Assembly: GCA_965215505.1 (NCBI GenBank)
Contig: OZ244065.1
Span: 4,352,001 to 4,416,000, forward strand
Length of the DNA: 64,000 nt
Direction of reading: 5' to 3'
From: Capsulimonadaceae bacterium
Lineage (GTDB): Bacteria > Armatimonadota > Armatimonadia > Armatimonadales > Capsulimonadaceae
The translations under genes were made by a program, and so were the position numbers. A model generated the notes under the pieces. It did not search any database and was not told where the DNA came from. It worked only from the letters and a program-made list of their open reading frames with translations. Shown here in pieces: positions 37,591-62,857 of the stretch. Positions within the stretch are counted from its first letter, which is position 1. Every line of letters begins with the position of its first letter.

Positions 37591-37610
37591 GTCGCGGCTT
37601 CCCTGCGATT

Positions 37611-37700: not shown

Positions 37701-37710
37701 TTGCACCTGC

Positions 37711-39813: not shown

Positions 39814-39875
39814 GGTCGCTCCTTTGTCTCGTGTTTATCGCGTTTGTGGCGTCGCTGTGTGGCGTTGCTGAAAAG

Positions 39876-40019: not shown

Positions 40020-40065
40020 CTCTCCGCCGCCCTCTCCCCTTCACCCGCCCTCTCCCCTTCGCCCG

Positions 40066-43281: not shown

Positions 43282-43284
43282 GGC

Positions 43285-46200
43285 TCAGTCTTTCCCGTCT
43301 ACCGTCAGGTGCGCCGTCTTGCCCAGCACGGACAGGGCGGGGTCAACCGCGCTGCCCATCTGCGGCGGCATGACGTCGTAGTCGCCCGGCGTGGCGGCCT
43401 GCAAGTGGTAATCGATCTCGTGCTGGCCGGGCGTCAGGTCCGAGATAAAAAAGACGACCTTGTCGTCACGCACGTCCGTATAGTCCCACCAGTTGGACCA
43501 GTCCGCTGTGTCGTCCCCGGACGCCTCGGCGACCCGGAACCCCGCCGGCAGCGGTTCCTCGACGACCACGCGCGAGGCGGGCCGAGTGGCATTAATAATG
43601 AGCCGGACGAGGACGCCCTCGCCCGCGTTCAGATGCGTGTCCGGGGTAGGCACGGTGTCCTCCCAGAGCCAGTTGCGGCGGCTCGTCGTCCGCATGTAGG
43701 TCCGCCTGATCCGATACCCGGATGGGGCGGGCGGCAGGGGCGCCCCGCCGGGGCGAAACACGGCGTTCCAGACGCGCGCCAAGAGCGGCGTCGGCGGGTC
43801 GGGCGCGGGCTGCGTGAGGCACTGCCGCAGTTCCAGCGAGTAGTACAGGCGGCCCGTCCCGACCTTCCGGAGCGAGACCGTGTTCTCGCCAATCTGCAAG
43901 GCCGTCCCAGGCACGTCCAGCGAGACCTCGGGCCGGTCCGCGGAGTCCGGCGTGAAGCGAACGGCGCGGACCTCATGCCCGTTGACCAGGACGTAGGCCT
44001 GGAAGTTCGGCGACGACTCGCCGCCCCGCGCCGCGTAGATCGCCAGGGCGCGCACCGCCACGGCGGTCGGGACCGGGCCGACCCAGTGGTCGCCGCTGCG
44101 GGCGGTCATCAGCCAGCGGGCCGCGCCGTCAATGCGCGCATCATCGGGAGTGACTGCCTCGGCCGCCAGCAAAGCCCAGGCCGTCGCCTCGGCGTCGGGC
44201 ATCTCGGCCCCCGCCCCCTCCGCCGTCCGGTGCCCGCCCCCTGCCCACGAGACGAGGCTGCCGGTCTGCCGCCCGACCTCCCACAAACGGCGCATCAGCG
44301 TCCGCGCCTCGCCGGCCTCTTCGCCGCCCAAGGCCTGCTCGGCCAGGGCGGCCCGCGCCAGATCGGCAGGGCGGGGCAAGGCGTCCGGGCCGCGCCAGCG
44401 CCTTTGGAGCCAGTGCAGGTTCGCTCGGGCGTCTTTCACATCGCCCCCCGCCGCCAGTGCCAGCGCGGCCAGCGAGACATTCGCCTCGTCCGGGTGCCCG
44501 TGTCCGCGCTCGGCGTTGGCGAGCGAGGCCAGCGTCTCGTTCGCGGCCTTCTGGACCTTTGCCGGGACCGGCAACCCGCCGGAGCGGGCCTGCGTCAGCG
44601 CCCAAGCCGCCCAGGCGGTCATCCAGACGTCGGGCTTGCTGGTGGAGAACCAGCCCCACCCCCCGCCGTCGCCTTGCAGGCGGACCAGTCGCAAGGCGGA
44701 GCGCCGGGCGACGTTTTGCAGCCGCGCCCGCGTGCCCGCGTCCGTCACCAGGCCGGGTGCCCCCAGCGCGGCGGCGTCGCAGAGCAGGGCCGAACCCGTC
44801 GCGTCCGTGCTTTCATAGGGGTAGCCCGAAATCCAGACCGTGGCGGGAAGCAGCGTCGTGCTGATGGAGGGCGCGAGCCGGACCGTCAGCCGACTCGCGC
44901 CTTGAATGGCCGACGGGTCGAGCGTGACCGACTGCGAAACGTCGTGCAGCAGCGTCCCCGAGTGCCAGACGTTCTGCATGACGCCGTGCGGCAGCAGCGG
45001 CACCGGCTCCTCCACGCCGTCGGACAGACCCCCGCCGGACGCCGTCATCTGGACGGGGACGGGCGGCGTGCCGTTTGCCGCGACGGCGTCGGGTGCGGTC
45101 ACAGTCCAGGTCAGCCGGGCCGGGCGGCCCGGCTCCACATCCACGGTCCGGGCCGCGTCACCCGACACGCCCAGCCCCGGCGCGGACAGGCGGATCGTGG
45201 CGTGGATCGTCCCGGCGGTGTTGTTGTGGACCAGGCCGATCAATCGCCCGGTGTCCCCGGCCACCAGGAAAAGCGGCGTTTCCAGCCGGACCAGCAGGTC
45301 CTTCCCGACCGTGACGGCGGCGACGGCCTTGCCGACGCGCGTGTCCGACGAGTGCCCGTAGCTCGTGATGCGCCACGTCGTCAGCGTGTCCGGCAGCGTG
45401 AAATGCACCGCAATGTTCCCGTCCGGGCCGGTCAGGAGGGCGGGCTTCCAGAGGGCGGTGTCGGGGAATTTGCGCCGGATGTCAATGCTGGTCCCGCCCT
45501 TGTCCACGTCGCCCAATGTCTCGACCTTGCAGGAGTAGTCGGTTTCGACGGCGTCTTCTTGGGCTGGCTGGAAGGCGTCGCCGATGGTGCCGGGCGGCTC
45601 CGGCTTGATGGCGTAGACGGCACCGTCCACCACGCCCAGCGAGACTTCGGCGGGGACGGGGCTGCCTTGCGCGTCCCGCGTATGCACGAGGATCGTGGCC
45701 GAGTCGCCCGGATGGTACGCCGTCTTGTCCGTGCTGAGGCTGACCAGCAGGCCGCGCCGGTCGTCGTCTACCGTCAGAGTCGCCTCACTGCTCTCGAACT
45801 GCTTGCCGTTGACCGCGCAGACCTTGACCCGGACCGAAGGCGCGTCGTCCAGTGTCACCGGGAGGTCCACGGCGTTCGAGTGCCGGGTCAGTGCCACGGT
45901 GAAGGCGCGGTAAAGCGTCGTCCCTTCCAGAGTGACCAGCGCAGTTGGGCCTGGGTGGGCCGTGTTGACCAGCAGGTGCGCGGTCTGCCCTGGCGTGTAT
46001 TTTGCCCGGTCCAGCACGACGGATAGGTCGGACAGCCGGGCGGGCAGGGCGCGGTCCGCGTCGGCGGTGTCGCCGGGGACCCAGACGTCGGTGTCCGCCG
46101 TGACCTTATTGCCGCGCCGGTCCGTCCCGCCGGCATGCACCGTCAGGAGGCCGTTCTGCGTGGCCGTGACGGTCGCCGTCGCCGAACCGTCGGCCCCGGT

Positions 46201-48285
46201 CGTGACGTGGACGTCCTTGACGGTCGTGGCCGCCCCTTTGCCGTCCGGCGTGTCCGCCTCATAGCCCGCGCTGACCTCGACATCCTGACCCGGCAAAGGC
46301 GCGTCCGAGGCGTTCCGGGCTGAAACCGTGACCGTCACCGCGTCGCCCTTGTGGCAGGCGTAGACGTCCGGCGTCGCCTTCAGCGAGAACTCGCCCTGCG
46401 CGACCGTCACCTTGCCCTCCGCGCTGACCGTGTGGCCGGAAGCGTCGTCCACGTCGGCGTCTACCGTGTATTCTTCGTCCCCGCCCGGCTCGCCGCTCCT
46501 GGTCGGCAGCCGCAGGAAGGCCTGGCCGTTTCCGTCCAGCGTGACATCCTTCTCGACCGTCGGCTCGCCGCCCGTGTCGGGGCTGTCGCCCGTGTTCTCA
46601 CTGCCGCCGCTGCTGAAGCCGCGCAGGATCACCTTCGCCCCGCTCACCGGCGAGCCGTAGTAGTAGGCCGCCGTGACCGTGGCGTCTACGGTGTCGCCAT
46701 GCACATAGCGGGGGGCGGAGAACGTCACCGTCGCCTGATACTCGGGCTTGTGGTAGGCGGCGACGCTGAACGTCGCCGACTCCCGGTGGCCGTCAATGAA
46801 GGCCTTCACCGTGTATTCGCCCGTCAGGGCCTCGGGCGAGAGGCTCAGGACGGTGTTCCACGACCCCAGCGCGTCCGTCGCCGTGTCCTGGTGGCTGACG
46901 AGGTTGTCCTGCGGGTCCCGGATGTCCAGGGTCACGGGCCGGGCCGCTGGCACCGCGAAGCCCCGGCCCTGGTCGAACCACCGGCTGATGCCCTCCAGAT
47001 TGACGGCCTGGCCGGGCCGGTAGACGGGCCGGTCGGTGTAGAGGAAGGCGCGCAGGGACCGGCCCGCGATGCTCGCCGAGGCGGCCGGGTCTGCCTGGTC
47101 GCCGCCTTCGGCGTCTGCATCGTCCGACGCCCCGTTCCTGCCAGGCGTGTTCAGGCCGAAAGACAGCGCGACCGTCGAGCCGCCCGCCTGCGCCACCAGA
47201 ATGCCTTCGCTCTCCGCCGATGCGCCCGCCGCCGAGAGCCGGGCCAGGCCGTCCGCGCCGGTCGTCGCTTCGCCCATAAGGCGGCTCGTGCCGGCCTCGG
47301 CGAACAGCCTCAGACGCGCGTGGGGGACGGGGCGGCCCGTCGCCAGATCGGTGACGAACGCCAACGTCCGCGTCCCGAAGGTCTTGCGGATCAGGGCCAG
47401 GTTCGTCACGCGCACCCAGCCGGTCGCCGTGACCGTCTTGGCGTCCTCGTCCGCCGTCGCCGTCACCCGGTACAGGCCGGGCGAGAGCGGCCCGAGCGGG
47501 ACGCGCTCGTAGAACGATCCCTCCTTGTCTGCGTCGCCGACGGTGTAGGTCCAGTGCCGCAGGGGGGTGAACTCGCCGCGCCAGAGCGGCCCCGGGCCCT
47601 CGGCGTTGTCGTGGACGGAGCGGGCCAGCAGGGAGGGCTTGTGGCCCAGCGCGCCGCCGACGTCCAGCCTGTCCAAGCGCAGGTGCAGGACGCGCGTCAG
47701 CAGAGCGCCTTGCAGGGGCAGCAGGGGAGTCTCGGCGGGCGTCCAGTCCAGCGTCGTCGCGGTGAAGTTCAGCGTGGACTCCTGCCGCTTCAACGGGATC
47801 GTGATCTGCGCGGCCTGCTCCTCCAGCACGACCACCGTGTGGGTGTCGTCGGACGAGTGCAGGCTGGTGGAGGCGCTGACCGCGTACTCGCCGACCCGGA
47901 CGTGGGCCAGCTCAAACCGCCCCTGGGCGTCCGTGTGGGTGCGCCACTCCGTCCGGGGCGCAGCGGAGCCGCCGGACGGGCCGACCTCGGCGTCATCTTT
48001 GCTGTCCTGCGTCCAGCCGAGCGGCGGCTCCGCCACGGCCTGCATGGAGGTTTCCACGTCCTGGACGGCGTCTTCGCCGCTCTTGGTATCATCTTTCAGC
48101 GACAGGGACACGTCGGCATCGGCCAGCGGCAGGCCCGAAACAGAGTCCACGCAGACGCCCCGGACCGTTCCGGTCGGCGGCTGGGACCAGGCCAGGGCCG
48201 CGCAGATCAAGGCGGTCAGGGCGATCAGGAGGGTGAGCAGCAGGCGTCGCCGCCGGTCGTCAGGCACGAGGGCGGGACGTGACAT
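43285..48285 (-). CDS. Bacterial alpha-2-macroglobulin family protein lacking the thioester motif
   Basis: TDRPVYRPG, PDTLTTWR, GGWGWF, VVEEPLPAG, RDDKV, TPGDY; YPYESTDAT in place of YPYGCxEQT. Confidence 0.9.
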   Translation of the reverse strand: MSRPALVPDDRRRRLLLTLLIALTALICAALAWSQPPTGTVRGVCVDSVSGLPLADADVSLSLKDDTKSGEDAVQDVETSMQAVAEPPLGWTQDSKDDAEVGPSGGSAAPRTEWRTHTDAQGRFELAHVRVGEYAVSASTSLHSSDDTHTVVVLEEQAAQITIPLKRQESTLNFTATTLDWTPAETPLLPLQGALLTRVLHLRLDRLDVGGALGHKPSLLARSVHDNAEGPGPLWRGEFTPLRHWTYTVGDADKEGSFYERVPLGPLSPGLYRVTATADEDAKTVTATGWVRVTNLALIRKTFGTRTLAFVTDLATGRPVPHARLRLFAEAGTSRLMGEATTGADGLARLSAAGASAESEGILVAQAGGSTVALSFGLNTPGRNGASDDADAEGGDQADPAASASIAGRSLRAFLYTDRPVYRPGQAVNLEGISRWFDQGRGFAVPAARPVTLDIRDPQDNLVSHQDTATDALGSWNTVLSLSPEALTGEYTVKAFIDGHRESATFSVAAYHKPEYQATVTFSAPRYVHGDTVDATVTAAYYYGSPVSGAKVILRGFSSGGSENTGDSPDTGGEPTVEKDVTLDGNGQAFLRLPTRSGEPGGDEEYTVDADVDDASGHTVSAEGKVTVAQGEFSLKATPDVYACHKGDAVTVTVSARNASDAPLPGQDVEVSAGYEADTPDGKGAATTVKDVHVTTGADGSATATVTATQNGLLTVHAGGTDRRGNKVTADTDVWVPGDTADADRALPARLSDLSVVLDRAKYTPGQTAHLLVNTAHPGPTALVTLEGTTLYRAFTVALTRHSNAVDLPVTLDDAPSVRVKVCAVNGKQFESSEATLTVDDDRRGLLVSLSTDKTAYHPGDSATILVHTRDAQGSPVPAEVSLGVVDGAVYAIKPEPPGTIGDAFQPAQEDAVETDYSCKVETLGDVDKGGTSIDIRRKFPDTALWKPALLTGPDGNIAVHFTLPDTLTTWRITSYGHSSDTRVGKAVAAVTVGKDLLVRLETPLFLVAGDTGRLIGLVHNNTAGTIHATIRLSAPGLGVSGDAARTVDVEPGRPARLTWTVTAPDAVAANGTPPVPVQMTASGGGLSDGVEEPVPLLPHGVMQNVWHSGTLLHDVSQSVTLDPSAIQGASRLTVRLAPSISTTLLPATVWISGYPYESTDATGSALLCDAAALGAPGLVTDAGTRARLQNVARRSALRLVRLQGDGGGWGWFSTSKPDVWMTAWAAWALTQARSGGLPVPAKVQKAANETLASLANAERGHGHPDEANVSLAALALAAGGDVKDARANLHWLQRRWRGPDALPRPADLARAALAEQALGGEEAGEARTLMRRLWEVGRQTGSLVSWAGGGHRTAEGAGAEMPDAEATAWALLAAEAVTPDDARIDGAARWLMTARSGDHWVGPVPTAVAVRALAIYAARGGESSPNFQAYVLVNGHEVRAVRFTPDSADRPEVSLDVPGTALQIGENTVSLRKVGTGRLYYSLELRQCLTQPAPDPPTPLLARVWNAVFRPGGAPLPPAPSGYRIRRTYMRTTSRRNWLWEDTVPTPDTHLNAGEGVLVRLIINATRPASRVVVEEPLPAGFRVAEASGDDTADWSNWWDYTDVRDDKVVFFISDLTPGQHEIDYHLQAATPGDYDVMPPQMGSAVDPALSVLGKTAHLTVDGKD

Positions 48286-49726
48286 CCGCGTCCTCCTTCC
48301 GCGCCGGGCTGCCCGTCACCGTCAGGCGCAGGATCAGCGCCGACGCCCCCAGCAGGATGAGGGCGACGCGCACGGCGCGTGTCGGCTCCGCGACGTGCCC
48401 GATGAGCGGCAGGAACTGGAACAACATCAGGCCGAGCAGAACGCCGCTGACGATGACCGCCTCCTGACGCAGCCGCGCCAGCCCGCCCGCCCCCGAAAGC
48501 AGCAGCCCGACTGCCACGCCCAGCAAAACGCCCGCCACCGAGCGCGGCTGCCAGATGTAATCCAGCAGCAGGGCGGGCAGTGTCAGGACGACGACCCATT
48601 GGAGCAGGACCGGCCAGCGCGCGCCGCGCGGGCCGTCCCCATTGGCCGCCCACTCCGACGCAAGCAGCGGCAGCAGCGCGCCCAGGCTGACCGCGAACAG
48701 GTCCCAGATGTCGCCCGGCCCGCTGGCGTGGACCGCCGCGCCGTTCTGCAAGGTCGCCAGCCGGTAGACCAGTAGGACGGCGGCGAAACCCATGCCGACG
48801 CGCCCGGCCCGCCCGCCGTCCTCGGAAAGTAGGGCAGGCCCGGACACCAGCCAGCCGCCCAGAATGAGCAGGGCCAGACCGTAGCCGGACCACAGGGCGA
48901 AGGCCAGGGCGCTGCCCGATGCCAGCAGGACCAGCCCCGCCGAGGAGGATTGTCGGTCGTCCCCCGCGCCGCGCCCCGTCCGGACCAGCAGGCCGAACAC
49001 GACGGCCCCCAGCGTCAACAACTCCAAGGGCCGCCAGGAGGGCGCGACCCGCGACAGCGGCAGCAGGACCAGGAGGATGGCCGCCGCCAGGGGGCCGAGG
49101 GCCGAGGGCCGCCGCGTCCGCCCGGCGAATGCCGAGGCCAGCGCGCCCGCCGCGCCCAGCAGCAGGGGGACGTCCGCCCAGAATTCCTGGTTCCGCGCCG
49201 AGGCCCGCCCGAACCCGATCAGGACCGCCCCCGCCAGGCACACCAAATAAAGCAGCCCGACCACCGCGCCGCCCCCGCCGCCTTCCGCGTCGGGGTCCAG
49301 CAGGGCCGGGGCGACTCCGAGGCACAGCACGGCCAGGGCCGCCCCGATCATCAGCGCGGTCAGCCCGGTCACCTCCCCGTGCGTCAGCCACAGCCGCCCC
49401 GCCGCGACGACGGCCGTCCCCAGCCCGAACATGGGAGCAGCGGAAGCCGCCCCGGACCGACGCCGTGCCAGGGCGCAGAGCGCCCAGCCGCCCGATGCGC
49501 CCAGGGCGATGCCGCGCGCCGCCATGAAGTCCGCGCCCGACGCGCCCAGCCGGACCATCGCCAGGCCGAGCAGCAATGTCGCCGCCAGCCAGACGGCGTA
49601 AAACGAACGTGGAAGGGTTGGGGGCGCGAGTCGGCGCGCGGCGCGGCCGGCCCCCGCGCCGAGGGCCAGGGTCGCCATGCCGATCACCAGGGCCAGCCAG
49701 GGCAGCAGCCAGAAATGAGTCGCCAT
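48260..49726 (-). CDS. Polytopic hypothetical membrane protein
   Basis: Many hydrophobic helices; GAGGAG RBS; overlaps the macroglobulin start. Confidence 0.75.
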   Translation of the reverse strand: MATHFWLLPWLALVIGMATLALGAGAGRAARRLAPPTLPRSFYAVWLAATLLLGLAMVRLGASGADFMAARGIALGASGGWALCALARRRSGAASAAPMFGLGTAVVAAGRLWLTHGEVTGLTALMIGAALAVLCLGVAPALLDPDAEGGGGGAVVGLLYLVCLAGAVLIGFGRASARNQEFWADVPLLLGAAGALASAFAGRTRRPSALGPLAAAILLVLLPLSRVAPSWRPLELLTLGAVVFGLLVRTGRGAGDDRQSSSAGLVLLASGSALAFALWSGYGLALLILGGWLVSGPALLSEDGGRAGRVGMGFAAVLLVYRLATLQNGAAVHASGPGDIWDLFAVSLGALLPLLASEWAANGDGPRGARWPVLLQWVVVLTLPALLLDYIWQPRSVAGVLLGVAVGLLLSGAGGLARLRQEAVIVSGVLLGLMLFQFLPLIGHVAEPTRAVRVALILLGASALILRLTVTGSPARKEDADVTSRPRA

Positions 49727-49809
49727 GAGTCTCCTCAAGCCGCCGCGCGGCACCCGTGCGGGCGGGGTGGCTTGGAGGATGGATTAGACGCGGGGAGGGC
49801 TTTTTCCTG

Positions 49810-50436
49810 CTACGGGTCCGCCTGCCCCACCAGGGCGGCGCGATACCCCGCACCGACATCCAGGTCGTGGCAGGTCCACCGCGCATCCGCCGTCGGCGTC
49901 GCCGCCGAGGAGAGTCCCACGCCCAAAGCTTTCAAGAAAGCCTCGTGCCGGACCCAGGCCCGCGTGAAGGCGGCGGGCCGGTCGGCGGGCGGCAGCGAGG
50001 ACAGCCGCGCCGCCTCCCCGGCGGGCAGATACCGTCCGGCCAGCGACACGGCGGCGAGGTCGGGGCAGACGCGCTCGATGTCTATGCCGACCGTGCGGTC
50101 CCAGGCCAGCGCGAACAGGGCCACGCCACCGCAGTGAGACAGGTTGAAGCCCAGGGCCGCGCCGTCCCCTTCCAGGAAAGGCTTGCCATGCTCGGTATAG
50201 TGGAAACGGAGCGAGGCAGGCGGGCAGCCCAGGGCCTCGCCGAGCAGCCCGCGCAGCAGGCCGCGGGCGGCTTCGAACCGGTCCGCGTCGAGCGGGCGGT
50301 GGAAGCGGGCCGCCCGTGCGCGCTCGTCCGAGGAGAGGGAGAGTGCCAGTGCGTCCCGCTCCCCCGGCGGCAGGTCCAGATCCGCGCGCCAAACCCCGAT
50401 GCCCGGCGTCAAGACCTCAACCGGCGTCAAGCGCAT
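49810..50436 (-). CDS. Sfp-type 4'-phosphopantetheinyl transferase
   Basis: GKP, FNLSH, VGIDIE, WVRHEAFLKALGVG. Confidence 0.93.
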   Translation of the reverse strand: MRLTPVEVLTPGIGVWRADLDLPPGERDALALSLSSDERARAARFHRPLDADRFEAARGLLRGLLGEALGCPPASLRFHYTEHGKPFLEGDGAALGFNLSHCGGVALFALAWDRTVGIDIERVCPDLAAVSLAGRYLPAGEAARLSSLPPADRPAAFTRAWVRHEAFLKALGVGLSSAATPTADARWTCHDLDVGAGYRAALVGQADP

Positions 50437-52993
50437 CAAGGCAGGCCCCCAGCCGGTCTCCCAGCGCGCCGACGTCTCCCAGCAGGCAGGTGACGTGCGT
50501 CCCCGGCACGTCGCACACGGTCAGGGCCGGCGCGACCTCGCGCCACAGGGCGAACGGGTCGCCGGGGAACGTCTCGGGGTCGTCGGCGGCGCGCAGCAGG
50601 TGGACCGGGCCGGCATAGGGGCGCGCGACATAGGCCGCCGCCGCCCGGTCGCAGTCCTCGATCAGACCCGCCCCGCCGCGCCCCTTCGCCCGCCGGCCCC
50701 AGCTCTGCACCAAAGCCCAGGCCGGCAGCAAGGCCTGCTGCCAGGCGAGGAAGCGCTGCGCGCTGCCCGCCAGGCGGCGCAGGGCCAGCCGGAGCCGGGG
50801 GTTGATGGCGTGGACCTCGATCAGCGCCAAAAACTCGACCGTCTCGCCCGAGGCGGTCAGCATCCGCGCCATCTCGTAGCCGATCAGGCCGGACCCGCAG
50901 AAGCCGCCGAGCCGGTAGGGGCCGTGCGGCTGGGCCGCGCGCACGACCGCGACATATTCGGCGGCCAGGCTCTCGATCGTCAGCGGCCCGCGCCCCCGCT
51001 CGGTGGGGGCGTGGAGGAGGAGCATCGGCTGGTCCGCGTGCAGGCGGCGGGCCAGGTGGTGCGCGTAAAACCCTCCCAGCGGGTAGTAGCCGTGCAGATA
51101 GAAGAAGGGCCGACGTGAGCCGCCCGCGAGCGGCGTCGGCGGCGGCATCGGGGCGGGTGCCTCGTCCCGGCGCAGGAGGGCAGCCAGGGCCTCCACCGTC
51201 CCGCCCTCGTACAGCGCGGACACCGGCACGGAACGGCCGCAGGTCTGCGCGATCCGGTCCAGCAGCCGGGCTGCCAGCAGGGAATGCCCGCCCAGTTCCA
51301 GGAAATCGTCCCGGATGCCGACGGGCCGGATGTCCAGCAGGTCCTCCCAGACCTGCGCGAGCTGCTGCTCCAGGGGGTTCCGGGGCGCGATAAAGTCCGG
51401 GCCGCGCTCCCGCAACTCCCCGGCGGGCGGCGGCAGGGCCGCCCGGTCCCGCTTGCCGCTGGGCGTCAGCGGCAGCGCGCGCAGGGGGGCGACGACGGCG
51501 GGGACCATGTGCGCGGGCAGAGTCCGCGCCAGGAAGTCGCGCAGGGCTGTCCCGGTCGGCGAGGTCCCGGCCCGCAGGACGACATAGGCCGCCAGCCGTT
51601 TCTCACCCGGCCGGTCTTCGCGCAGGGCGGCGACGGCGTCCAGGATGTCCGGATGGCCCAGGAGGGCCGCCTCGATCTCGCCCAGCTCGATCCGGTATCC
51701 ACGCATCTTCACCTGCGTGTCCGCACGGCCGAGATAGTAAAGCTCCCCCCCGGCCCCTTGCCGGGCCAGGTCGCCCGTCCGGTACAGCCGCGCGCCCGGC
51801 GTCCGGTCGAAGGGGTGGGGTAGGAAGCGCTCGGCGGTCAGCACGGGCCGGCGCAGGTAGCCGCGCGCCAGCCCGGCCCCGGCGATGTAAATCTCGCCCG
51901 TCTCGCCCCCGGAAACCGGGCGCATGTTTTCGTCCAGCAGGAACAGCTCGGTGCCGGCTATCGGACAGCCGATGGGGATGGAATCGGGCAGCGGGTCGCC
52001 GTCCAAGCCGCGCGGAACCGTCCAGCAGGCCGCGTCAATGGTCGCCTCGGTCGGCCCGTAGACGTTGTGGAGGTCGGCCACGAGCTTCGCGTGGACGAGG
52101 CGCGGCAGGTCCGGCGGCATCGCCTCGCCGCCGCAGAACAGGTGCCGCAGGTCCCGGCACCGCACGATGTCCGGGTGCGCCAGCAGGACCCGGAGCTGGG
52201 CCGGGCCGAAGCCGGCCACGGTGATCCGCCGCTCGGCCAGCGTCCGGACGACATAACCGGCGTCCACCGTCCCGCCGGGGCGCATCAGGACCAAAGTCGC
52301 CCCCACCGTCAGCGGCCAGAAGATGGCCCAGACGGACGGGTCGAAGCTGAACGAGTACGACTGGAGCATCCGGTCGCCCGCTGTCAGCGGGAAGCACCCC
52401 TGACGCCAGTGCAGGTTGTTACAGGCCCCCCGGTGCGCCAGCAGGACGCCCTTCGGCTGCCCGGTCGAGCCGGAGGTGTAGATGACATAGGCCAGGTCGT
52501 CCGGCCCGGACCCGCCCGCCAGGTCTCCGCCCTGCTCGCCGTCCTCCAGGCCCGCGCCCAGGGGAATGACGCGCGCTCCGGCGGGGAGGAGGCCCCGCAG
52601 GCGCGGCTGCGCCAGGGTCAGGGTGGGCCGGGCGTCTTCCAGCAGGAAGGCCAGCCGCTCGGGCGGGTAGGCGGGGTCGAGCGGCAGGTACGCCCCGCCG
52701 GCCTTCAGGACGGCCAGCAGCGCGACGATCGTCTCCGGCCCGCCGTCCGCGCAGACGCCTACGACGGCGTCCGGGCCGGCCCCGTTTACCCGCAGGAGGC
52801 GGGCCAGCCGGTTCGCGCGCCGGTTCAGGTCCCCGTAGGTCAGGCGGCCGCCGTCAAAGACGACCGCGGGGGCGTCCGGCGTGCGTGCGGCCTGCGCCTC
52901 CACCATCCGGTGCAGGCATTCTTCCGTGCGGGCCGGATCGGCGCGGCGCGCGGCCAGGGCGGCTCGCGCGGCCAGGGCAGCTCGCGCGGTCAC
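50417..52993 (-). CDS. Stand-alone NRPS-like A-T-TE enzyme
   Basis: YVIYTSGSTGQPKG, YGPTE, YRTGD, SGKRDR; LGGHSLL carrier Ser; TE GGFCGSG and PGTH; GTG start overlaps the upstream stop (GTGA). Confidence 0.93.
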   Translation of the reverse strand: MTARAALAARAALAARRADPARTEECLHRMVEAQAARTPDAPAVVFDGGRLTYGDLNRRANRLARLLRVNGAGPDAVVGVCADGGPETIVALLAVLKAGGAYLPLDPAYPPERLAFLLEDARPTLTLAQPRLRGLLPAGARVIPLGAGLEDGEQGGDLAGGSGPDDLAYVIYTSGSTGQPKGVLLAHRGACNNLHWRQGCFPLTAGDRMLQSYSFSFDPSVWAIFWPLTVGATLVLMRPGGTVDAGYVVRTLAERRITVAGFGPAQLRVLLAHPDIVRCRDLRHLFCGGEAMPPDLPRLVHAKLVADLHNVYGPTEATIDAACWTVPRGLDGDPLPDSIPIGCPIAGTELFLLDENMRPVSGGETGEIYIAGAGLARGYLRRPVLTAERFLPHPFDRTPGARLYRTGDLARQGAGGELYYLGRADTQVKMRGYRIELGEIEAALLGHPDILDAVAALREDRPGEKRLAAYVVLRAGTSPTGTALRDFLARTLPAHMVPAVVAPLRALPLTPSGKRDRAALPPPAGELRERGPDFIAPRNPLEQQLAQVWEDLLDIRPVGIRDDFLELGGHSLLAARLLDRIAQTCGRSVPVSALYEGGTVEALAALLRRDEAPAPMPPPTPLAGGSRRPFFYLHGYYPLGGFYAHHLARRLHADQPMLLLHAPTERGRGPLTIESLAAEYVAVVRAAQPHGPYRLGGFCGSGLIGYEMARMLTASGETVEFLALIEVHAINPRLRLALRRLAGSAQRFLAWQQALLPAWALVQSWGRRAKGRGGAGLIEDCDRAAAAYVARPYAGPVHLLRAADDPETFPGDPFALWREVAPALTVCDVPGTHVTCLLGDVGALGDRLGACLDALDAG

Positions 52994-53949
52994 AGTGCGC
53001 TCCCCAGGAAGCTCGCGACGTCCTCGGACGTGATCTCCGGCTCGCCGGGCGCGACGTGGTCCAGCTTGCCCTGACGCATCCACCCTTCGAGCTGTTCCAC
53101 CAGGCTGAACAGGTGGTCGAACGAGTCCACGACGAACAGCAGCGGCTGGTAGAAGTTCGGCAGGAATCCCTGGTTGACCACCCATTCGAGCTGGAGCGAA
53201 TACCTCTGGACCTGTCTCGGGTCGGCGGCGCGGTCTATCTCGCTCCGGGAGCTGAGGAGTGCGCTGCCGTAGACCTTCACCCCGTCCCCCCCGCCCGGCG
53301 CGCGCATCAGGCCCGTCTCGATCGTGAACCAGAAGAAGCGCGCCATCGCCCGGATCATGCTCGTCAGTCGCCGTATCTTCTCCTCCTCGTCGGCCACCCC
53401 CGAGACCAGCTCGACCGCCGTGTGCGCGCACCGGCCGAACTGCACCAGCACGTCGGCGAAGGCCGGGTCGGTGTGCATCGGGACGTGACCGGTGATGTCG
53501 TGGAAGATGTCCGGCCAGGGGGAGAATGACTGCGCCGCATCCCGCATCGTCACCGTCGTCGGGAACTCGCGGCGGCGCAGGCAGTCGAAAAAGAGGAAGG
53601 CGGGCAAGTAGCCGCTGACGCCGATCGCCCGGAAGCCGGTCAGGGGCGCGAGGAAGCGGTTGACGTCCTCCAGGCGCGGCACCCGGTCCGGGTCGAGCCG
53701 CAGCGAGGCCAGCCCGCGCAGGAACGGCGCGTTCGCGTGCCGTACCCAGCGCGACTCCATCCCCGCATACAGCCGCCGCCAGGCGGCGTGATTCTCTTCG
53801 GAGTACAACTCGTAAGGCTGATGGATGAACCGCCGCCCCGCCAACTGGGCACCCTCGATGAAGGCCGATTTGCCCGTCGTCAGCCCGGTTCCCTCGGACT
53901 GTGAGAGTGACTTTTCGCTGTTCGAGAGTGACTTTTCAATGATCGCCAA
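52990..53949 (-). CDS. Pterin-dependent aromatic amino acid hydroxylase (PhhA-like) with an altered active site
   Basis: PDIFHDITGHVP (2 His), RFFWFTIETGL (Glu), YGSALLSS, YQP; start tentatively TTG 53949. Confidence 0.88.
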   Translation of the reverse strand: MAIIEKSLSNSEKSLSQSEGTGLTTGKSAFIEGAQLAGRRFIHQPYELYSEENHAAWRRLYAGMESRWVRHANAPFLRGLASLRLDPDRVPRLEDVNRFLAPLTGFRAIGVSGYLPAFLFFDCLRRREFPTTVTMRDAAQSFSPWPDIFHDITGHVPMHTDPAFADVLVQFGRCAHTAVELVSGVADEEEKIRRLTSMIRAMARFFWFTIETGLMRAPGGGDGVKVYGSALLSSRSEIDRAADPRQVQRYSLQLEWVVNQGFLPNFYQPLLFVVDSFDHLFSLVEQLEGWMRQGKLDHVAPGEPEITSEDVASFLGSAL

Positions 53950-54149
53950 GTGTCCATCCCCTGCGCCCCTATCTTGAAGACGGGACGCCCTGATGAACGT
54001 AAAGTGCAGATTCAGTGCCAACAATAAGGAAAATGGGGGGCGAGCGAGGAAACAGGTATATCACACAGGGTCGGTGTCAGGGGGAAAGTGTCAAGATTCA
54101 CAACGGCGCGGTGAGGCAGGCGACCATCAGGAACGCGGCCCGTCAGGAG

Positions 54150-54860
54150 TCAGGAACGCAGCCCGTAGCCGACCCCGCGCCGCGTCTCGAGCAGGTCGCC
54201 GGCCTGCACCGGTATCTTGGCGCGCAGCCGACGGATGTGGATGTCCACAGTCCTCTCGCCGCCCTCGAAGTCCACGCCCCAAACCATGTCCAGCAGGCGG
54301 TCGCGGGCGAAGAACTTGCCCCGGTGCAGCGTCAGGAAGCGCAGCAGATCGTACTCGCGCGGCGTCAGCGGGAGGATGAAGCCGGACGCGGAGCGCGCGC
54401 AGCCCGCGGCCAGGTCGAGGACCACGTCGGCGACGGTCAGCGTGTCGCCGGACTGGATGTGGCGCTTGCGGAAGCCCAGCAGGGACAGGCGGGCCAGCAC
54501 CTCGGCGGGCGCATAGGGGGGAAGCAGGAAGTCGTCGGTATAGGCGGGCCAGTCCGGCTGTTCCAGGTGCCTGGACGTCAGCAGGGCCAGCCGGGCGGGC
54601 GCGGGCAGCTCCTCCCCCCAGGCGTGCAGGAGCAGCCGCCCGGCGTGGCGCAGGGGCAGGCAGTCGGGGGCGGTGGAGAGGTCCGCCAGCAGGACGTCCG
54701 GGGGCCGGCCCTCGAAGGCGCGGCAGAGCGCGTCCATCGCCGCCGCCCCGTCGTCCAGGGCTGTCCGCTGCACGGCATAGCCGGCCAGCTTGAGGGCGCC
54801 GACGAGGGCGGCGGCGGGTCCGCCTTTTTCATTGGGGGCCAGGACGAGGACGTTCAGCAT
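54150..54860 (-). CDS. OmpR-family regulator with an atypical receiver domain, GlnR-like
   Basis: LTPREYDLL, VWG, RTVDIHIRRLRAKI, RGVGY; receiver lacks the N-terminal acidic pair and the conserved Lys; DW...DDFLL...PAEVLARL. Confidence 0.8.
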   Translation of the reverse strand: MLNVLVLAPNEKGGPAAALVGALKLAGYAVQRTALDDGAAAMDALCRAFEGRPPDVLLADLSTAPDCLPLRHAGRLLLHAWGEELPAPARLALLTSRHLEQPDWPAYTDDFLLPPYAPAEVLARLSLLGFRKRHIQSGDTLTVADVVLDLAAGCARSASGFILPLTPREYDLLRFLTLHRGKFFARDRLLDMVWGVDFEGGERTVDIHIRRLRAKIPVQAGDLLETRRGVGYGLRS

Positions 54861-54974
54861 GGCGGCACGGATCGTTTAAAGCACGGGTCGTTCGTGCGGG
54901 GATCAGCCGCGCCGCTGCGGGTGAGAGGTTTCTTGAGAGGTGTCTAAAGGAGTCCGCGTCAATGGGGTGATTCT

Positions 54975-55004
54975 ATTGTGGCACGGGAAGGGGGCCGGTG
55001 TCAA
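54975..55004 (-). promoter_or_regulatory. Sigma70-type promoter of the regulator gene
   Basis: Minus strand TTGACA-N18-CACAAT. Confidence 0.55.
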
Positions 55005-55009
55005 GGGTT

Positions 55010-55042
55010 GCGGGGGCCGGCACTTCCAGTGCCGGCCCCCGC
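55010..55042. terminator. Perfect 14 bp hairpin 3' of nirD (terminator or stabiliser; no U-tract)
   Basis: GCGGGGGCCGGCAC-TTCCA-GTGCCGGCCCCCGC. Confidence 0.55.
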
Positions 55043-55053
55043 GCCGGAGAGAA

Positions 55054-55404
55054 TCACACCGTCAGCCACATCTCCCCGCCCTCGGACAGACGGACCGGGT
55101 AGGTCTGGATGTCGCAGTCGCCCATCAGCCCGACCCCCGTCGTCAGGTCGAACTTGCGCGAGTGGAACGGGCACATGAGGATCGTGCCCCCGACCAGGCC
55201 GTCGGCCAGCGGGCCGTTCCGGTGCGGGCACTCCGCCTGGGTGGCGTAGACCGCCCCGGCGCGGGTGTGGAACACGGCGACTTCCAGGCCGCGCACCGGG
55301 AAGACGCGCCCCTCGCCCATAGGGATCTGGTCCACAGGACCGAGGGAGACTTCGGTTCTTTCCAATTCAGCCCTTTCCAATTCAGCCCTTTCGATTGTCA
55401 TCAT
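55054..55404 (-). CDS. nirD: Nitrite reductase small subunit (Rieske)
   Basis: CPHRNGPLADG and CPFH; ATGA overlap with nirB. Confidence 0.9.
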   Translation of the reverse strand: MMTIERAELERAELERTEVSLGPVDQIPMGEGRVFPVRGLEVAVFHTRAGAVYATQAECPHRNGPLADGLVGGTILMCPFHSRKFDLTTGVGLMGDCDIQTYPVRLSEGGEMWLTV

Positions 55405-57875
55405 GCGTTCACCACCGGGAGGGTCGAGACGAACTGGTTGGCCGTGGCCGGGGTGTAGGCTTCCAGCCAGGGGTCAACGTAGGCGTCCACGGTCGCCTGC
55501 ATCGTCGCGTCCAGCCGGGCGGCGATCCCCTCGCCGTCCTCCACGACGACGGCCTTGATCTTCTCCAGCCCGACCCGCTCCACGAAGCCGTAGGTCCGCT
55601 CCAAATACTTGGCGTTCTCGATGTAGTACTGCATGAACCGGCCCATGATCAGGAGCACCTCCTCGTGGGAGCCGACGCTGCACAGCACGTCCCCCTTGCG
55701 GATGTGCGCGCCCGCCGCGCCGCCGATGAAGATCTCCCAGCGCCCGCCCTCGACGGCCACCGCGCCCAGGTCCTTGACCATCGCCTCAGAGCAGTTGCGC
55801 GGGCAGCCCGCCGTCGCCAGCTTCATCTTGCCGGGGCTTTCGACCCCCTGGAAGCGGCGCTCGATCTTGATGCCCAGGCCCGTGCTGTCCCCGACCCCGT
55901 AGCGGCAGAACTCGGTCCCGACGCAGGTCTTGCAGGTGCGGAAGGACTTCGCGTAGGCGTGGCCCGAGGGCATGTCCAGGTCCTTCCAGACGTTCGGCAG
56001 GTTTTCCTTGGTGATCCCCAGGAGGTCAATGCGCTGGCCGCCGGTGATCTTGACCATCGGCACGTCGTACTTGTCGGCGACGTCCGCGATGCGCCGCAGC
56101 TCGGCCGCCGACGTGACCCCGCCGTAGATGCGCGGGATGACCGAGAACGTCTTGTCCTTCTGGATGTTGGCGTGGACGCGGTCGTTGATGTAGCGGGCGT
56201 CCCGCTCGTCCTCGTACTCCGCGCCCCAGAGCGACTTCAGCAGCGAGGCCAGGCCCATCTTGCTGGTGACCTCTTCCTGGCCCCCCGCAAGCGCCTCGAA
56301 AACGGACGAGACGGACTTTAGCTGCCGGTCCATGATTGCCTGCACCAAGGCGGGCTTCGGCAGCGGCACGCCCGGCACATAGTAGTGGATGCTCGGGTCC
56401 TCCTCCACCTGGCCCTCGGCGGCCCACTCGACCACCTCCTGCACCAGCTTCTTGCACGACCCGCAGCCCGCGCCCGCCCGCGTCGCCTCCATCACCATCT
56501 TCAGGGACCGCTTGCCGCCCTCGACGCACTTCCTGATCTGGCCCTTCGAGACGCCGTTGCAGTTGCAGATCTGGGCGCTGTCCGGCATCTCCAGCATCGT
56601 CGTCTCGGTGGACGGTGCCCCGATGTCGAACAGCAGCGACAGCCGCTCCTCGGGCAGCGGCGTCCCCCGGTCAAAGGCCTGCATCAGATAGGCGACTTTG
56701 TTCAGGTCGCCCAGCATCATCGCCCCGATCAGCATGCCGTCCCGGATGATCAGCTTCTTGTAGGTCCCGCGCTTCGGCTCGGAGAACATGACCACTTCGT
56801 CCCGGTCGTCCATCGGCTCGGTCACGCCCATCGAGGCAAGCTCGACGCCCATGACCTTCAGCTTGGTGGCGATCTTGGACCCGTGGTAGGCGGCATCCAG
56901 GTTGCGCCCCGTGATGTGGTCGGCCAGCACCTGCCCCATCTCCCACAGCGGCGCGACCAGGCCGTAGACCCGCCCCCGGTGCTGGGCGCACTCGCCGACG
57001 ACGTAGATGTCCGGGTCGTCCACCGACCGCATCTGGTTGTCGGTGACGATGGCGCGCTCGACGGTCAGGCCGCAGGCGTGCCCGATCTCGGCGTTCGGCT
57101 TGATGCCGGTCGAGATGACCACCATGTCGCAGTCCAGTGTCGTGCCGTCCTTGAACTCAAGGCCCGTCACGCTGTCCTCGCCCAGCACGCGGGCGGTGTT
57201 CTTCATGGTGTGGACGTGGACGCCCATCTTCTCCATGATGCCGCCCAGAATCTTGCCCGCCGCCGGGTCGAGCTGCTGGTTCATCAGGTGCCCGCTGATG
57301 TGGATGACATGCACCTCGACGCCGTAGTTGATCAGCCCGCGCGCCGCCTCCAGGCCCAGCAGTCCGCCGCCGATGACGGCCGCCTTGCGGCACTTGTTGG
57401 CGTAGCCGGCGATCTTGTGGCAGTCGTCCAGGGTGCGGAACACGAAGACGCCGTGCTTGTCCGCCCCGTCGGGCGTTTGCAGGCCATCCATCGGCGGGAC
57501 GAAGGGCCGGCTGCCCGTGGCGATCATCAGCTTGTCGTAGGGCGTGACCTGGCCGTCGTCGCTGTGGACCTCTTTGCGCGCCCGGTCGATGTGCGTCACG
57601 CGGGCCGGGGCGTGGAGCTTCACGTCGTTCTCGGCGTACCACTCCATCGGGTTGAGGAAAATGTCGGAAGGGTCCTGCGACCCGTTGAGGACGTTGGACA
57701 GGAGGATGCGGTTGTAATTGCCATACGGCTCGTCGCCGAACATGGTGATCTCGAACTGCTCGCCGCCGCCGCGCGCCAGTATCTCTTCGACCGTGCGCGC
57801 GCCGGCCATGCCGTTGCCGATCACGACCAACTTCTGCTTATCTGGAGTCTGAGTTAAAGTCTGAATATCTGCCAT
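55401..57875 (-). CDS. nirB: NAD(P)H assimilatory nitrite reductase large subunit
   Basis: IGNGMAG, GGGLLGLE, CNCN...GCGSC, HANIQKD, CKTCVG...C, GCPRNC; start at ATG 57875 after GAAAGG. Confidence 0.95.
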   Translation of the reverse strand: MADIQTLTQTPDKQKLVVIGNGMAGARTVEEILARGGGEQFEITMFGDEPYGNYNRILLSNVLNGSQDPSDIFLNPMEWYAENDVKLHAPARVTHIDRARKEVHSDDGQVTPYDKLMIATGSRPFVPPMDGLQTPDGADKHGVFVFRTLDDCHKIAGYANKCRKAAVIGGGLLGLEAARGLINYGVEVHVIHISGHLMNQQLDPAAGKILGGIMEKMGVHVHTMKNTARVLGEDSVTGLEFKDGTTLDCDMVVISTGIKPNAEIGHACGLTVERAIVTDNQMRSVDDPDIYVVGECAQHRGRVYGLVAPLWEMGQVLADHITGRNLDAAYHGSKIATKLKVMGVELASMGVTEPMDDRDEVVMFSEPKRGTYKKLIIRDGMLIGAMMLGDLNKVAYLMQAFDRGTPLPEERLSLLFDIGAPSTETTMLEMPDSAQICNCNGVSKGQIRKCVEGGKRSLKMVMEATRAGAGCGSCKKLVQEVVEWAAEGQVEEDPSIHYYVPGVPLPKPALVQAIMDRQLKSVSSVFEALAGGQEEVTSKMGLASLLKSLWGAEYEDERDARYINDRVHANIQKDKTFSVIPRIYGGVTSAAELRRIADVADKYDVPMVKITGGQRIDLLGITKENLPNVWKDLDMPSGHAYAKSFRTCKTCVGTEFCRYGVGDSTGLGIKIERRFQGVESPGKMKLATAGCPRNCSEAMVKDLGAVAVEGGRWEIFIGGAAGAHIRKGDVLCSVGSHEEVLLIMGRFMQYYIENAKYLERTYGFVERVGLEKIKAVVVEDGEGIAARLDATMQATVDAYVDPWLEAYTPATANQFVSTLPVVNA

Positions 57876-58006
57876 TTTGCTGCCTTTCGGAGACACGAGG
57901 TTTCCCGAGAGAACGGGTAGCATCAGGAAAAGGCAGCACTGCCGGGGAAGAGCGTCGGTGCAGAGGGGAGCGTGGAGGCCACAGCATCGTGGTCAACTCT
58001 GCAAAC

Positions 58007-58038
58007 AGTATGAATCACAAATGTTTCCGCCGTGTTTC
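58007..58038 (-). promoter_or_regulatory. GlnR-type box and -10 of the nirBD promoter
   Basis: Minus strand GAAAC-ACGGCG-GAAAC-N10-CATACT; same geometry as the site at 63075-63106. Confidence 0.65.
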
Positions 58039-58048
58039 GGAGACACTG

Positions 58049-58180
58049 CCCCCCGACCCCTCTCCCGCAAGCGGGAGAGGGGAGTCAGAGAGGACAAAGG
58101 CTAAGAGTGAAGGCGCAGAGGAAATGATCCGTCTCTTTCGCCCCCCTCTCCCGCTTGCGGGGGAGGGGCCGGGGGTGGGG
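58049..58180. repeat. Inverted doublet of a CCCCTCTCCCGC-AA-GCGGGAGAGGGG REP-like palindrome
   Basis: Units at 58049-58084 and 58141-58180 in opposite orientation. Confidence 0.75.
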
Positions 58181-58192
58181 GTTCTTCAAACC

Positions 58193-58540
58193 CTACACCT
58201 CCAGCAGCCCGACGTCCAGTACCAGGGTCCCGGACACCCCCTCGGGGGCGGCCACGGTGGCTTCCAGCTTGGTCCCGGACATCAGATCCTCGACCACGGC
58301 CAGGGCGACATGAACGTCGCCGCGCGCCCCGATGGGGAAGAGCCGCATGGGCCGGCCGTCACGCATCAGGGTGACGTAGATGAGTTCGGCGGACGAGTTG
58401 CCCGCCCGGAAATAGACGAACTGGGTCCGCTTGCCGACCGGGACGGTATAGGTCAGCTCGGCCGAGAGCGGGACGGGGTTATGCAGGCCGCGCCCCTCGA
58501 ACGGGAAGACGCCTTGCAGCAGTTGGGGTTTCGAGTACAT
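58193..58540 (-). CDS. Small beta-rich protein of unknown function in the nitrate cluster (paralog A)
   Basis: LQGVFPFEGRG, YFRAGNSS, FPIG, HVAL; AAGGAG RBS; clear paralog of 62495-62857. Confidence 0.85.
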   Translation of the reverse strand: MYSKPQLLQGVFPFEGRGLHNPVPLSAELTYTVPVGKRTQFVYFRAGNSSAELIYVTLMRDGRPMRLFPIGARGDVHVALAVVEDLMSGTKLEATVAAPEGVSGTLVLDVGLLEV

Positions 58541-58605
58541 AAGTATTTGTTTCTCCTTAGATTTGAGGCTCGTATCAGGGAAGTCTGTCAGCTCGGGGAA
58601 GTCTG

Positions 58606-58642
58606 TCAGCCGCCCGGCCCCGTGCTGGGGCCGGGCGGCTGA
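58606..58642. terminator. Perfect 16 bp hairpin 3' of the nitrate transporter gene (no U-tract)
   Basis: TCAGCCGCCCGGCCCC-GTGCT-GGGGCCGGGCGGCTGA. Confidence 0.55.
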
Positions 58643-58648
58643 GGGGTG

Positions 58649-60283: not shown

Positions 60284-60368
60284 GATGTCTCCTCGTAAGA
60301 TCGGTACAGATTGCTAACATAAAGGGGAGACGCGACGCTGCGTTGAGAAACTCTAAAGGCCCTACGGC

Positions 60369-62498: not shown

Positions 62499-62857
62499 GC
62501 GGACTCGTGTTCCTCCAGGATTCCGACATCCACGACGACCGCCCCGGTCAGCCCGCGCGGCGCGGCATAGCCGACCTCGATGCGCGAGCCGGCGGCGTGC
62601 GTCTCGATGATGGAAAGCGGCACATGGAAGTCGGCCTTGGGGCCGACGGGGAAGTAACGGATCGGCTTGCCGTTGACCGACAGCGCGAGATAAAGCAGGT
62701 CGTCGGACAAGTTGCCGGCCCGGAAGTAGATCACCTCGGCGGTCGTGCCGGGCGGGACATGGTAACACAGGGCGTCATTCAGCGGGCCGAGGTCGAAAAA
62801 CCCCCGCCCGGCAAAAGGGAAGACCCCCTGCAAGAAGCGCGGCGTAGCCTGGCCCAT
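62495..62857 (-). CDS. Small beta-rich protein of unknown function in the nitrate cluster (paralog B)
   Basis: LQGVFPFAGRG, YFRAGNLS, FPVG, HVPL; alternative GTG start at 62938. Confidence 0.8.
   Translation of the reverse strand: MGQATPRFLQGVFPFAGRGFFDLGPLNDALCYHVPPGTTAEVIYFRAGNLSDDLLYLALSVNGKPIRYFPVGPKADFHVPLSIIETHAAGSRIEVGYAAPRGLTGAVVVDVGILEEHESA

Follow-up and report, generated by a model that had tools for sequence, protein, structure and literature searches.

The window analyzed here, a 64,000-nucleotide stretch of the genome of a Capsulimonadaceae bacterium (assembly GCA_965215505.1, contig OZ244065.1, positions 4,352,001 to 4,416,000), carries three overlapping genes on its reverse strand (all coordinates given below for these genes and their codons are on this strand). 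The first (52990..53949) encodes a 319 aa variant of the pterin/Fe(II)-dependent aromatic amino acid hydroxylases, a small, intensively studied family in which the control of regiochemistry and substrate choice by the pocket is debated. Its TGA stop codon overlaps the GTG start (GTGA) of a gene for an 858 aa protein (50417..52993) that resembles non-ribosomal peptide synthetases (NRPS) and matches Pfam AMP-binding, AMP-binding_C, PP-binding and Thioesterase, an adenylation-thiolation-thioesterase (A-T-TE) architecture. The end of the A-T-TE gene is in turn overlapped by a gene for a Sfp/HetI-type 4'-phosphopantetheinyl transferase (PPTase; 49810..50439; Pfam ACPS, 1.3e-11, and AASDHPPT_N), the best NCBIfam match of which, to HetI (1.3e-39), is under the cut-off of that family. 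The hydroxylase belongs to a lineage in which the substrate pocket of bacterial phenylalanine hydroxylase (PhhA) has been altered, and it is very probably a neofunctionalized PhhA paralog that is dedicated to biosynthesis and works with the A-T-TE and the PPTase, not a housekeeping enzyme for the conversion of Phe to Tyr.

The Hydroxylase and Its Substrate Pocket

The hydroxylase gene starts with a TTG codon. A longer in-frame open reading frame (ORF) extends to 54024, and 53949 is the likely start because the MAIAEK-type N-terminus of close homologs begins there. A 21-nt tandem duplication (53905-53946; EKSLSNS/EKSLSQS) is found within this N-terminus and is present as a single copy in close homologs; Tandem Repeats Finder reported nothing over 53800-54100, the duplication being too short for that program. 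The protein matches Pfam Biopterin_H (PF00351) at 8.8e-32 (110.9 bits, cut-off 22.7), and its best solved relative is the phenylalanine hydroxylase (PAH) of Chromobacterium violaceum (cPAH, PDB 1LTU; ~1e-37). Residues are numbered here by the 319 aa protein, and the corresponding positions of human PAH and cPAH were assigned by alignment. HDITGH aligns with HDLFGH of cPAH (H138/H143), and TIETG with TVEFG (E184), giving H150 and H155 (codons within 53485..53502) and E211 (53317..53319) as the iron ligands, and this triad is invariant across an alignment of 35 variant sequences. Equally invariant are F120/F121, aligned in cPAH with the pterin-stacking Phe (human F254, cPAH F107), and the substrate-carboxylate residues R136 (human R270) and S233/S234 (human S349/S350), with roles as given in PMC8003416. 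W207, at the position of human W326, is retained, and is not Phe as in tryptophan hydroxylase (TPH).

In the same alignment, FSPWPD stands opposite YLQEPD of cPAH and YGSALLSS opposite YGAGILSS. A residue census was made of the 120 best homolog clusters (of roughly 7,300 homologs, the window protein counted in), and the full variant set (F[SA]PWPD-type, T[IV]E[TS]G and YGSA[LM]LSS) was found in 36 of them; the other 84 had the canonical YLPEPD, TxEFG and YGSGLLSS, with no mixed forms. Because the three changes occur together in 36 of the 120 clusters and in none of the remaining 84, they are not due to chance. These results agree with the original prediction, made from the sequence of the window, that the His-x4-His/Glu iron triad is intact and that the FSPWPD, TIETG and YGSALLSS motifs are genuinely changed. 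Its placement of the changes at Y277/T278/E280, F331 and G346 of human PAH is likewise reproduced with the established numbering of the human ligands, H285, H290 and E330, together with S349. This numbering matches the pocket residues listed in PMC8003416.

A column-by-column comparison of variant and canonical clusters gave 12 discriminating columns. S28 (Ala in the canonical proteins), L80 (Ile) and R200 (Lys) are columns for which no human PAH position is given. Just before F142 the variant has a one-residue deletion where the canonical proteins have Leu; F142 itself replaces Tyr (human Y277) and W145 replaces Glu (human E280), each in 36/36 variant against 84/84 canonical clusters, and the codons for F142-S-P-W145, at the human Y277-T278-P279-E280 positions, are found at 53515..53526. 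T153 replaces Ala between the two His ligands. Residue 212 (human F331; codon 53314..53316) is Thr in 32 and Ser in 4 of the 36 variant clusters and Phe in 84/84 canonical clusters, and residue 230 (human G346; codon 53260..53262) is Ala in 36/36 and Gly in 84/84. The last three columns form a loop, L263-P264-N265 (53155..53163), at human T378-V379-T380, where Leu, Pro and Asn are each present in 36/36 variant clusters, against Glu in 81/84, Ile in 84/84 and Asp in 78/84 canonical clusters; we assigned the human numbering of this loop ourselves, taking the conserved QP...SF motif as a fixed point.

Eight of the substitutions (F142, W145, T153, T/S212, A230, L263, P264 and N265), along with the deletion, are located in or beside elements of the substrate pocket, as the roles of these elements are described in PMC12171880 and PMC8003416. 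The Tyr377-Thr380 loop of PAH, in which Val379 corresponds to Ile366 of TPH1 and Asp455 of tyrosine hydroxylase (TH), lines the pocket and differs among PAH, TH and TPH (PMC12171880). None of the 12 columns falls within the pterin-side segment that holds cPAH L101/F107, and the column comparison revealed no additional docking insert that would set the variant apart from the canonical proteins. Since this segment is free of discriminating columns, and R136 and S233/S234 are invariant, neither the chemistry nor the cofactor seems to have changed; the side-chain pocket, by contrast, looks altered in all of its walls. Compared with bacterial PhhA (cPAH and the canonical proteins of Armatimonadota, Gemmatimonadota and Acidobacteriota), the variant belongs to the same Biopterin_H fold family, is a single domain of ~300 aa, and agrees in its iron ligands (2-His-1-Glu), its pterin-stacking Phe and its carboxylate Arg and Ser, but the 12 differences that are fixed cluster in the side-chain pocket, where the canonical Y277, E280, F331, G346 and hydrophobic Val379-type residue read F, W, T, A and P.

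Two of the changed positions are those that give the Streptomyces phenylalanine 3-hydroxylase (Phe3H, or PacX, with homologs in the mureidomycin, napsamycin, sansanmycin and sanglifehrin clusters) its meta selectivity. According to PMC7027792, Phe3H C187 replaces the Phe of Phe 4-, Tyr 3- and Trp 5-hydroxylases, and T202 replaces the Gly of Phe 4-hydroxylases (Phe4H); these correspond to T212 and A230 of the window protein, so that the equivalence of Cys187 and Thr202 with F331 and G346, which the original prediction had put forward, is borne out. The same paper reports that C187S gave 100% meta product and that T202A gave 67% meta and 33% para and was very slow. The variant and Phe3H are thus alike in that the Phe beside the Glu ligand has given way to a residue that is small and polar, and the YGAG Gly to a larger one, and Phe3H is also a pterin/Fe hydroxylase encoded in a natural-product cluster; its partner there is a multimodular assembly line, whereas the variant is paired with a lone A-T-TE. 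A separate derivation of the two, also predicted originally, is consistent with the 62-68% identity of the variant to canonical PhhA of Armatimonadota, Gemmatimonadota and Acidobacteriota, compared with a published figure of only 24-28% between Phe3H and bacterial Phe4H (PMC7027792).

The Hydroxylase/A-T-TE/PPTase Cassette

DNA context was available for seven variant loci (the window, L002, L115 from genome G301, L116, L117, L118 and L119), of which L117 and L118 are near-identical metagenome contigs. An A-T-TE gene, with products of 56-77% identity, is found directly downstream of the hydroxylase in 7/7, and the PPTase gene follows it in the 5/5 that are long enough (including L115, L116, L117 and L118). 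Indirect evidence comes from 12 further pairs of hydroxylase and A-T-TE clusters, the longest contigs of which are identical in size; this suggests that they share the same pairing. An A-T-TE match of more than 40% identity was found at 0/79 canonical genome loci and in 0/106 canonical rows among L082-L195 (some of them duplicates), where there were only weak acyl-CoA-ligase-like matches of 25-28% identity. The original prediction would have been undercut by ordinary catabolic PhhA of the same clade carrying the altered residues; canonical Tyr, Glu, Phe and Gly were present in 84/84 clusters and at 79/79 and 106/106 loci. The variant sequences make up a lineage of their own, found in another gene context, a biosynthetic one, and the linkage to A-T-TE and PPTase genes, the Cys thioesterase (see below) and the Val379-loop change were all absent from that prediction.

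The flanks of the cassette vary between loci, and its distribution in the genus is patchy. A protein search found the hydroxylase in 1 of 14 other genomes, and a DNA search found cassette DNA in 2 of 15 genus genomes, one of these being the A-T-TE alone on a 2.6-kb contig. A tblastn search of the A-T-TE against plasmids returned only generic NRPS modules of up to 45% identity. In G301, an rve-family integrase/transposase gene (18360-19340 of L115) is located ~8 kb from the cassette, which fits a mobile or accessory character of the region. In the window, a 200 bp spacer (53950..54149), presumed to be the promoter region, separates the cassette from the regulator of a nitrate cluster and, judged from genus synteny, would be the right-hand edge of the cassette. 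A promoter scan found no sigma-70-like site in this spacer, a terminator scan gave 3 terminator-like matches where 1.8 were expected, and Rfam had no match at E<=0.1 over 49000-55500. The adjacent OmpR-type regulator (54150-54860) was considered as a regulator of the cassette and rejected, as it is syntenic with nirB and a major facilitator superfamily (MFS) gene across the genus in genomes without the cassette, and is missing at other cassette loci.

The core motifs of the A-T-TE are intact (TSGSTGxPKG, YGPTE, YRTGD, GKxDR and GGHSL). The specificity code of the adenylation (A) domain, read at 10 positions relative to motifs A4/A5 and placed by PheA numbering, is D-P-W-G-F-G-V-I-D-K. It is identical at the covered positions in 27 of 30 cassette-type A-T-TE (one of them truncated, with the last seven positions only), and the other three differ at one code position each. 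The code positions are spaced (+1, +3, +39, +25, +2, +23, +8, +1) exactly as those listed for Av.MysE in the supplement of PMC12232313. In the MysE model, the serine hydroxyl is hydrogen-bonded by the Asp at code position 9 (PMC12232313), a residue that binds side-chain amines in the A domains for diamino acids (PMC12042044). A larger cavity is expected from the Gly residues at positions 4 and 6, and the domain could accommodate a bulky side chain that carries an OH or NH group, a fit that is no proof of it. A SulM-like specificity for diaminopropionate was rejected since the code differs, and a full-text literature search for A-domain specificity codes found no paper. Codes that are one to three positions off that of the cassette occur in other A-T-TE proteins with a Ser thioesterase (P0194, P0197, P0202, P0203, P0213, P0222, P0238 and others), several of which are cyanobacterial (Chlorogloeopsis, Fischerella, Nostoc, Oculatella and Lyngbya). 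To our knowledge, no function has been assigned to the cyanobacterial group with the near-identical code; an identity with MysE was rejected for these relatives because the published MysE codes differ, and a search of the ESM Atlas returned generic A-T-TE clusters only.

The thioesterase nucleophile motif reads GFCGSG, with Cys in place of Ser (50720..50737, an approximate position estimated from the residue number), and Cys (GFCG[SA]G or a close variant) is present in 30/30 cassette-type A-T-TE. The best solved match is AB3403, a termination module of Acinetobacter (PDB 4ZXH/4ZXI; 4.3e-13). In the alignments, GFCGSG is paired with GWCFGG of AB3403 and GWSFGG of NocB, the Cys being opposite the Cys of AB3403, the catalytic Ser of the NocB thioesterase and of 7crn, and the Ala of the 7dxo mutant; the triad His is recognized through PGTH, compared with PGDH. 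NRPS thioesterases with a Cys nucleophile have been tied to the formation of a beta-lactone (ObiF) and a beta-lactam (SulM), the only known cases of such strained-ring release (PMC10510592). ObiF1, SulM and AB3403 have Cys at the nucleophile position of a type-I thioesterase, as in the cassette, but they are termination modules with a condensation domain (C-A-T-TE) that act on acylated or peptidyl substrates, whereas the cassette A-T-TE has neither a condensation domain nor a partner NRPS. The window genome contains no other A-domain protein at E<=1e-20, and the A-T-TE therefore stands outside any larger assembly line. MysE (Ava_3855), which acts in mycosporine-like amino acid biosynthesis and needs a PPTase, is also a stand-alone A-T-TE with the same code spacing and Asp at position 9, but at 5 or more of the 10 positions the cassette code departs from those published for MysE (Ser, Pro and Gly types), the thioesterase of MysE-type relatives has Ser, and there are no mycosporine genes near the cassette.

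Paralogy, Phylogeny and Proposed Function

Genome G301 (= G309), of the same genus, carries both forms of the enzyme: the variant in the cassette and, ~90 kb away, a canonical copy of 66% identity. The latter adjoins an HPPD-like gene (of HPPD size, with two Glyoxalase domains) and genes for an FAA hydrolase and homogentisate dioxygenase (HgmA), and so sits in a classical catabolic cluster, a context never seen for the variant, which is followed by the A-T-TE and then the PPTase instead. The window genome (6.18 Mb in one contig, 96% complete) has a single Biopterin_H gene, that of the cassette, and no canonical copy. It encodes a prephenate dehydrogenase and, elsewhere, a pterin-4a-carbinolamine dehydratase. 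There was no match to HgmA_C in this genome, and one was present in each of three relatives with canonical PhhA. Given the prephenate dehydrogenase and the lack of an HgmA_C match, the hydroxylase is needed neither for the supply of tyrosine nor for the catabolism of Phe.

In a tree built on all columns, 42 variant and 108 canonical rows were split by a single branch (FastTree support 100), and those variant members with a taxon label are all Armatimonadota (L002 and P0035). The variant states are considered derived because the canonical sister clade, the majority of the distant representatives and TH/TPH (PMC7027792) have residues of the Y/E/F/G type. Trp at the E280 position was found in 0 of the 149 other representatives that were readable by the motif pattern. 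Several distant bacterial hydroxylase lineages (P0243, P0260, P0284, P0312, P0331, P0337, P0362, P0368, P0379 and P0386) have no Phe beside the Glu ligand (Val, Ala, Thr or Met instead), and in some of them the G346 position is occupied by Ala or Ser as well; remodeling of the pocket at the F331 and G346 sites may have arisen repeatedly.

Since the Fe(II) site, the pterin site and the Arg/Ser carboxylate pair are all kept, the hydroxylase is proposed to use O2 and tetrahydropterin to hydroxylate a free aromatic L-amino acid. With all four side-chain walls of the pocket rebuilt (Y277F, E280W, F331T/S, G346A, the Val379 loop and the deletion after the Arg), the ring would be held differently, and hydroxylation might then take place at C3 of L-Phe and yield meta-tyrosine, in which case the reaction of Streptomyces Phe3H would have been reached a second time, independently. 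The A-T-TE, which is translationally coupled to the hydroxylase, would adenylate the product and load it on its carrier domain after priming by the cassette PPTase, and the Cys thioesterase would release it, possibly as a dimer, a cyclodipeptide or a strained ring. Hydroxylation of free L-Phe at the meta (or another non-para) position is suggested by the parallel with Phe3H at the same two positions and is put forward tentatively, as a leading guess that may well be wrong. The explanation as a whole, a cassette PhhA paralog with meta-hydroxylation of Phe as its leading guess, loading by the A-T-TE and release by the Cys thioesterase, is the best we can offer, although we would place it somewhat below an even chance.

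Several observations weigh against this explanation. The case for regiochemistry and substrate is an analogy with proteins that are only 24-28% identical to Phe4H-type enzymes, and the residues themselves differ, being Cys and Thr in Phe3H but Thr/Ser and Ala in the variant; the available part of the published Phe3H description has nothing that corresponds to E280W or to the Pro at the Val379 position, and these two changes could indicate another substrate. The A-domain code resembles no documented aromatic-specific code, and a near-identical one (one or two positions off) occurs in the cyanobacterial-type A-T-TE with a Ser thioesterase, which at 42-45% identity are the closest homologs outside the cassette. 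An AlphaFold2 model built from the 35-sequence variant alignment had a mean predicted local distance difference test (pLDDT) score of 68, and it was in the changed loops (residues 133-149 and 263-269) that values fell below 50. A second tree was made with the discriminating columns removed and 11 distant representatives added from a library of 1.84 billion proteins. It kept the canonical clade (46 rows, SH-aLRT 98), but the variant rows formed an unresolved grade beside very long outgroup branches, with 2 changes needed, and the outgroup row P0243 fell among them. As the outgroup end branches measure 1.4-6.8 changes per column, rooting with these representatives is unreliable, and the proposed derivation from a canonical ancestor rests on character-state parsimony and not on a well-rooted tree. 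Finally, the protein scores above the cut-off of the NCBIfam equivalog for phenylalanine 4-monooxygenase (NF008877; 258.9 against 247).

The role of the cassette could be the same with a different aromatic substrate, the enzyme converting Tyr to DOPA or hydroxylating Trp or His, and the A-T-TE activating that product. This would make sense of the change from E-I-D to L-P-N in a loop that lines the pocket and differs in PAH, TH and TPH (PMC12171880), of the space opened by the replacement of F331 by Thr along with the new Trp at the E280 position, and of an A-domain pocket (Gly at positions 4 and 6, Asp at 9) suited to a large, OH- or NH-bearing side chain. However, TH and TPH keep YxPEPD, TVEFG and YGAGLLSS (the Phe being kept in Tyr and Trp hydroxylases according to PMC7027792), so the variant is unlike them, and its W207 is the Trp of W326 rather than the Phe of TPH. 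We regard another substrate as rather unlikely.

If the substitutions were neutral or compensatory, the cassette enzyme could be an ordinary Phe 4-hydroxylase that was recruited to supply tyrosine to the A-T-TE, and its 62-68% identity to canonical PhhA, the NF008877 score, the retention of iron-, pterin- and carboxylate-binding residues and the name phenylalanine 4-monooxygenase given to members of the clade in public records would all follow. Neutrality is hard to reconcile with 12 fixed, clade-specific columns that are concentrated in the pocket and have no intermediates in 120 clusters, and a tyrosine supply with a genome that already makes Tyr through prephenate dehydrogenase; a separate canonical copy is kept in G301, and the score for the second NCBIfam model, TIGR01267, is far under its cut-off (154.9 against 264.75). 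This makes ordinary para-hydroxylation unlikely, and the annotation as phenylalanine 4-monooxygenase, in public records and by the NCBIfam equivalog, is probably wrong for the variant clade.

A third possibility is that the scaffold performs chemistry new to the family, either on a carrier-tethered substrate or at the beta (benzylic) carbon, and that the three genes together yield a strained or cyclized product such as an alpha-amino-beta-lactone; taken together, such chemistry appears quite improbable. In the tethered form, the amino acid would be hydroxylated while bound to the carrier of the A-T-TE and the thioesterase would free the hydroxylated acid, following the logic of pairs such as NikP1/NikQ, where an A-T-TE is combined with an oxygenase. 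The strict adjacency and GTGA overlap of the two genes, and the fact that nothing else in the cassette would require a carrier protein, speak for it, but we know of no pterin-dependent hydroxylase that acts on a carrier-bound substrate, and the variant has no additional docking insert. The invariant R136 and S233/S234, at positions that bind a free carboxylate (PMC8003416), count mildly against it as well, and we consider tethering very unlikely. Equally remote is hydroxylation at the aliphatic (benzylic, beta) carbon followed by cyclization of the beta-hydroxy amino acid to a beta-lactone as in ObiF, for which the Cys nucleophile in 30/30 cassette proteins, the link of such thioesterases to the ObiF beta-lactone and SulM beta-lactam (PMC10510592) and the contact between Asp at code position 9 and a serine beta-OH in the MysE model (PMC12232313) can be cited, yet AB3403 also has Cys without a known lactone product and the idea is entirely inferential. 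Nor do we know of a natural Biopterin_H-family hydroxylase that makes beta-hydroxy amino acids.

A PhhA paralog dedicated to a biosynthetic cassette remains the preferred explanation. Pterin hydroxylases embedded in biosynthetic gene clusters are already known (PacX and SfaA); what is new here, as far as can be judged by sequence comparison, is that the variant arose independently, with other residues in the pocket, and is partnered by a condensation-free A-T-TE that has a Cys thioesterase, and our literature searches found no paper describing the pairing of a pterin hydroxylase with an A-T-TE. The variant would represent a natural, clade-wide and apparently independent remodeling of the two positions on which the meta selectivity of Streptomyces Phe3H depends, accompanied by two further pocket changes, and the canonical sister clade, at 62-68% identity, provides ready-made reciprocal mutants. 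The three-gene unit should be easy to express and could give a new catalyst for non-proteinogenic amino acids, and show for the first time what a Cys-thioesterase A-T-TE lacking a condensation domain produces. The natural products of Armatimonadota are little explored, and we know of none that has been characterized.

Neighboring Genes

To the right of the cassette is a nitrate/nitrite assimilation block (54150-62768) with genes for the OmpR-type regulator, a NirB-like nitrite reductase, an MFS transporter and a molybdopterin oxidoreductase, and the gene order is kept across the genus (searched to 60300). The regulator matches Pfam Trans_reg_C only, with no Pfam receiver-domain match, and its NCBIfam matches begin near residue 107. 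Between nirB and the MFS gene (58050-58175) is a 43-nt inverted-repeat element, with arms that are 86% complementary and a 40-nt spacer. Stretches of it recur widely in the window genome and in genus relatives, and it looks like a dispersed repeat of the REP/MITE type.

On the other side, between the PPTase gene and one for an alpha-2-macroglobulin, there are two overlapping ORFs of 553 and 497 aa in different frames of the reverse strand (48225-49886 and 48260-49753). Neither has a Pfam or NCBIfam match, only short DNA fragments of the region were matched in genus relatives, and the 553 aa ORF had no tblastn match in the other cassette loci. Downstream of the cassette (35935-48285) are genes for GH43, alpha-L-fucosidase and alpha-L-rhamnosidase enzymes, followed by that for the bacterial alpha-2-macroglobulin (1666 aa). 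A fucosidase gene is also found at L116, directly after the cassette.

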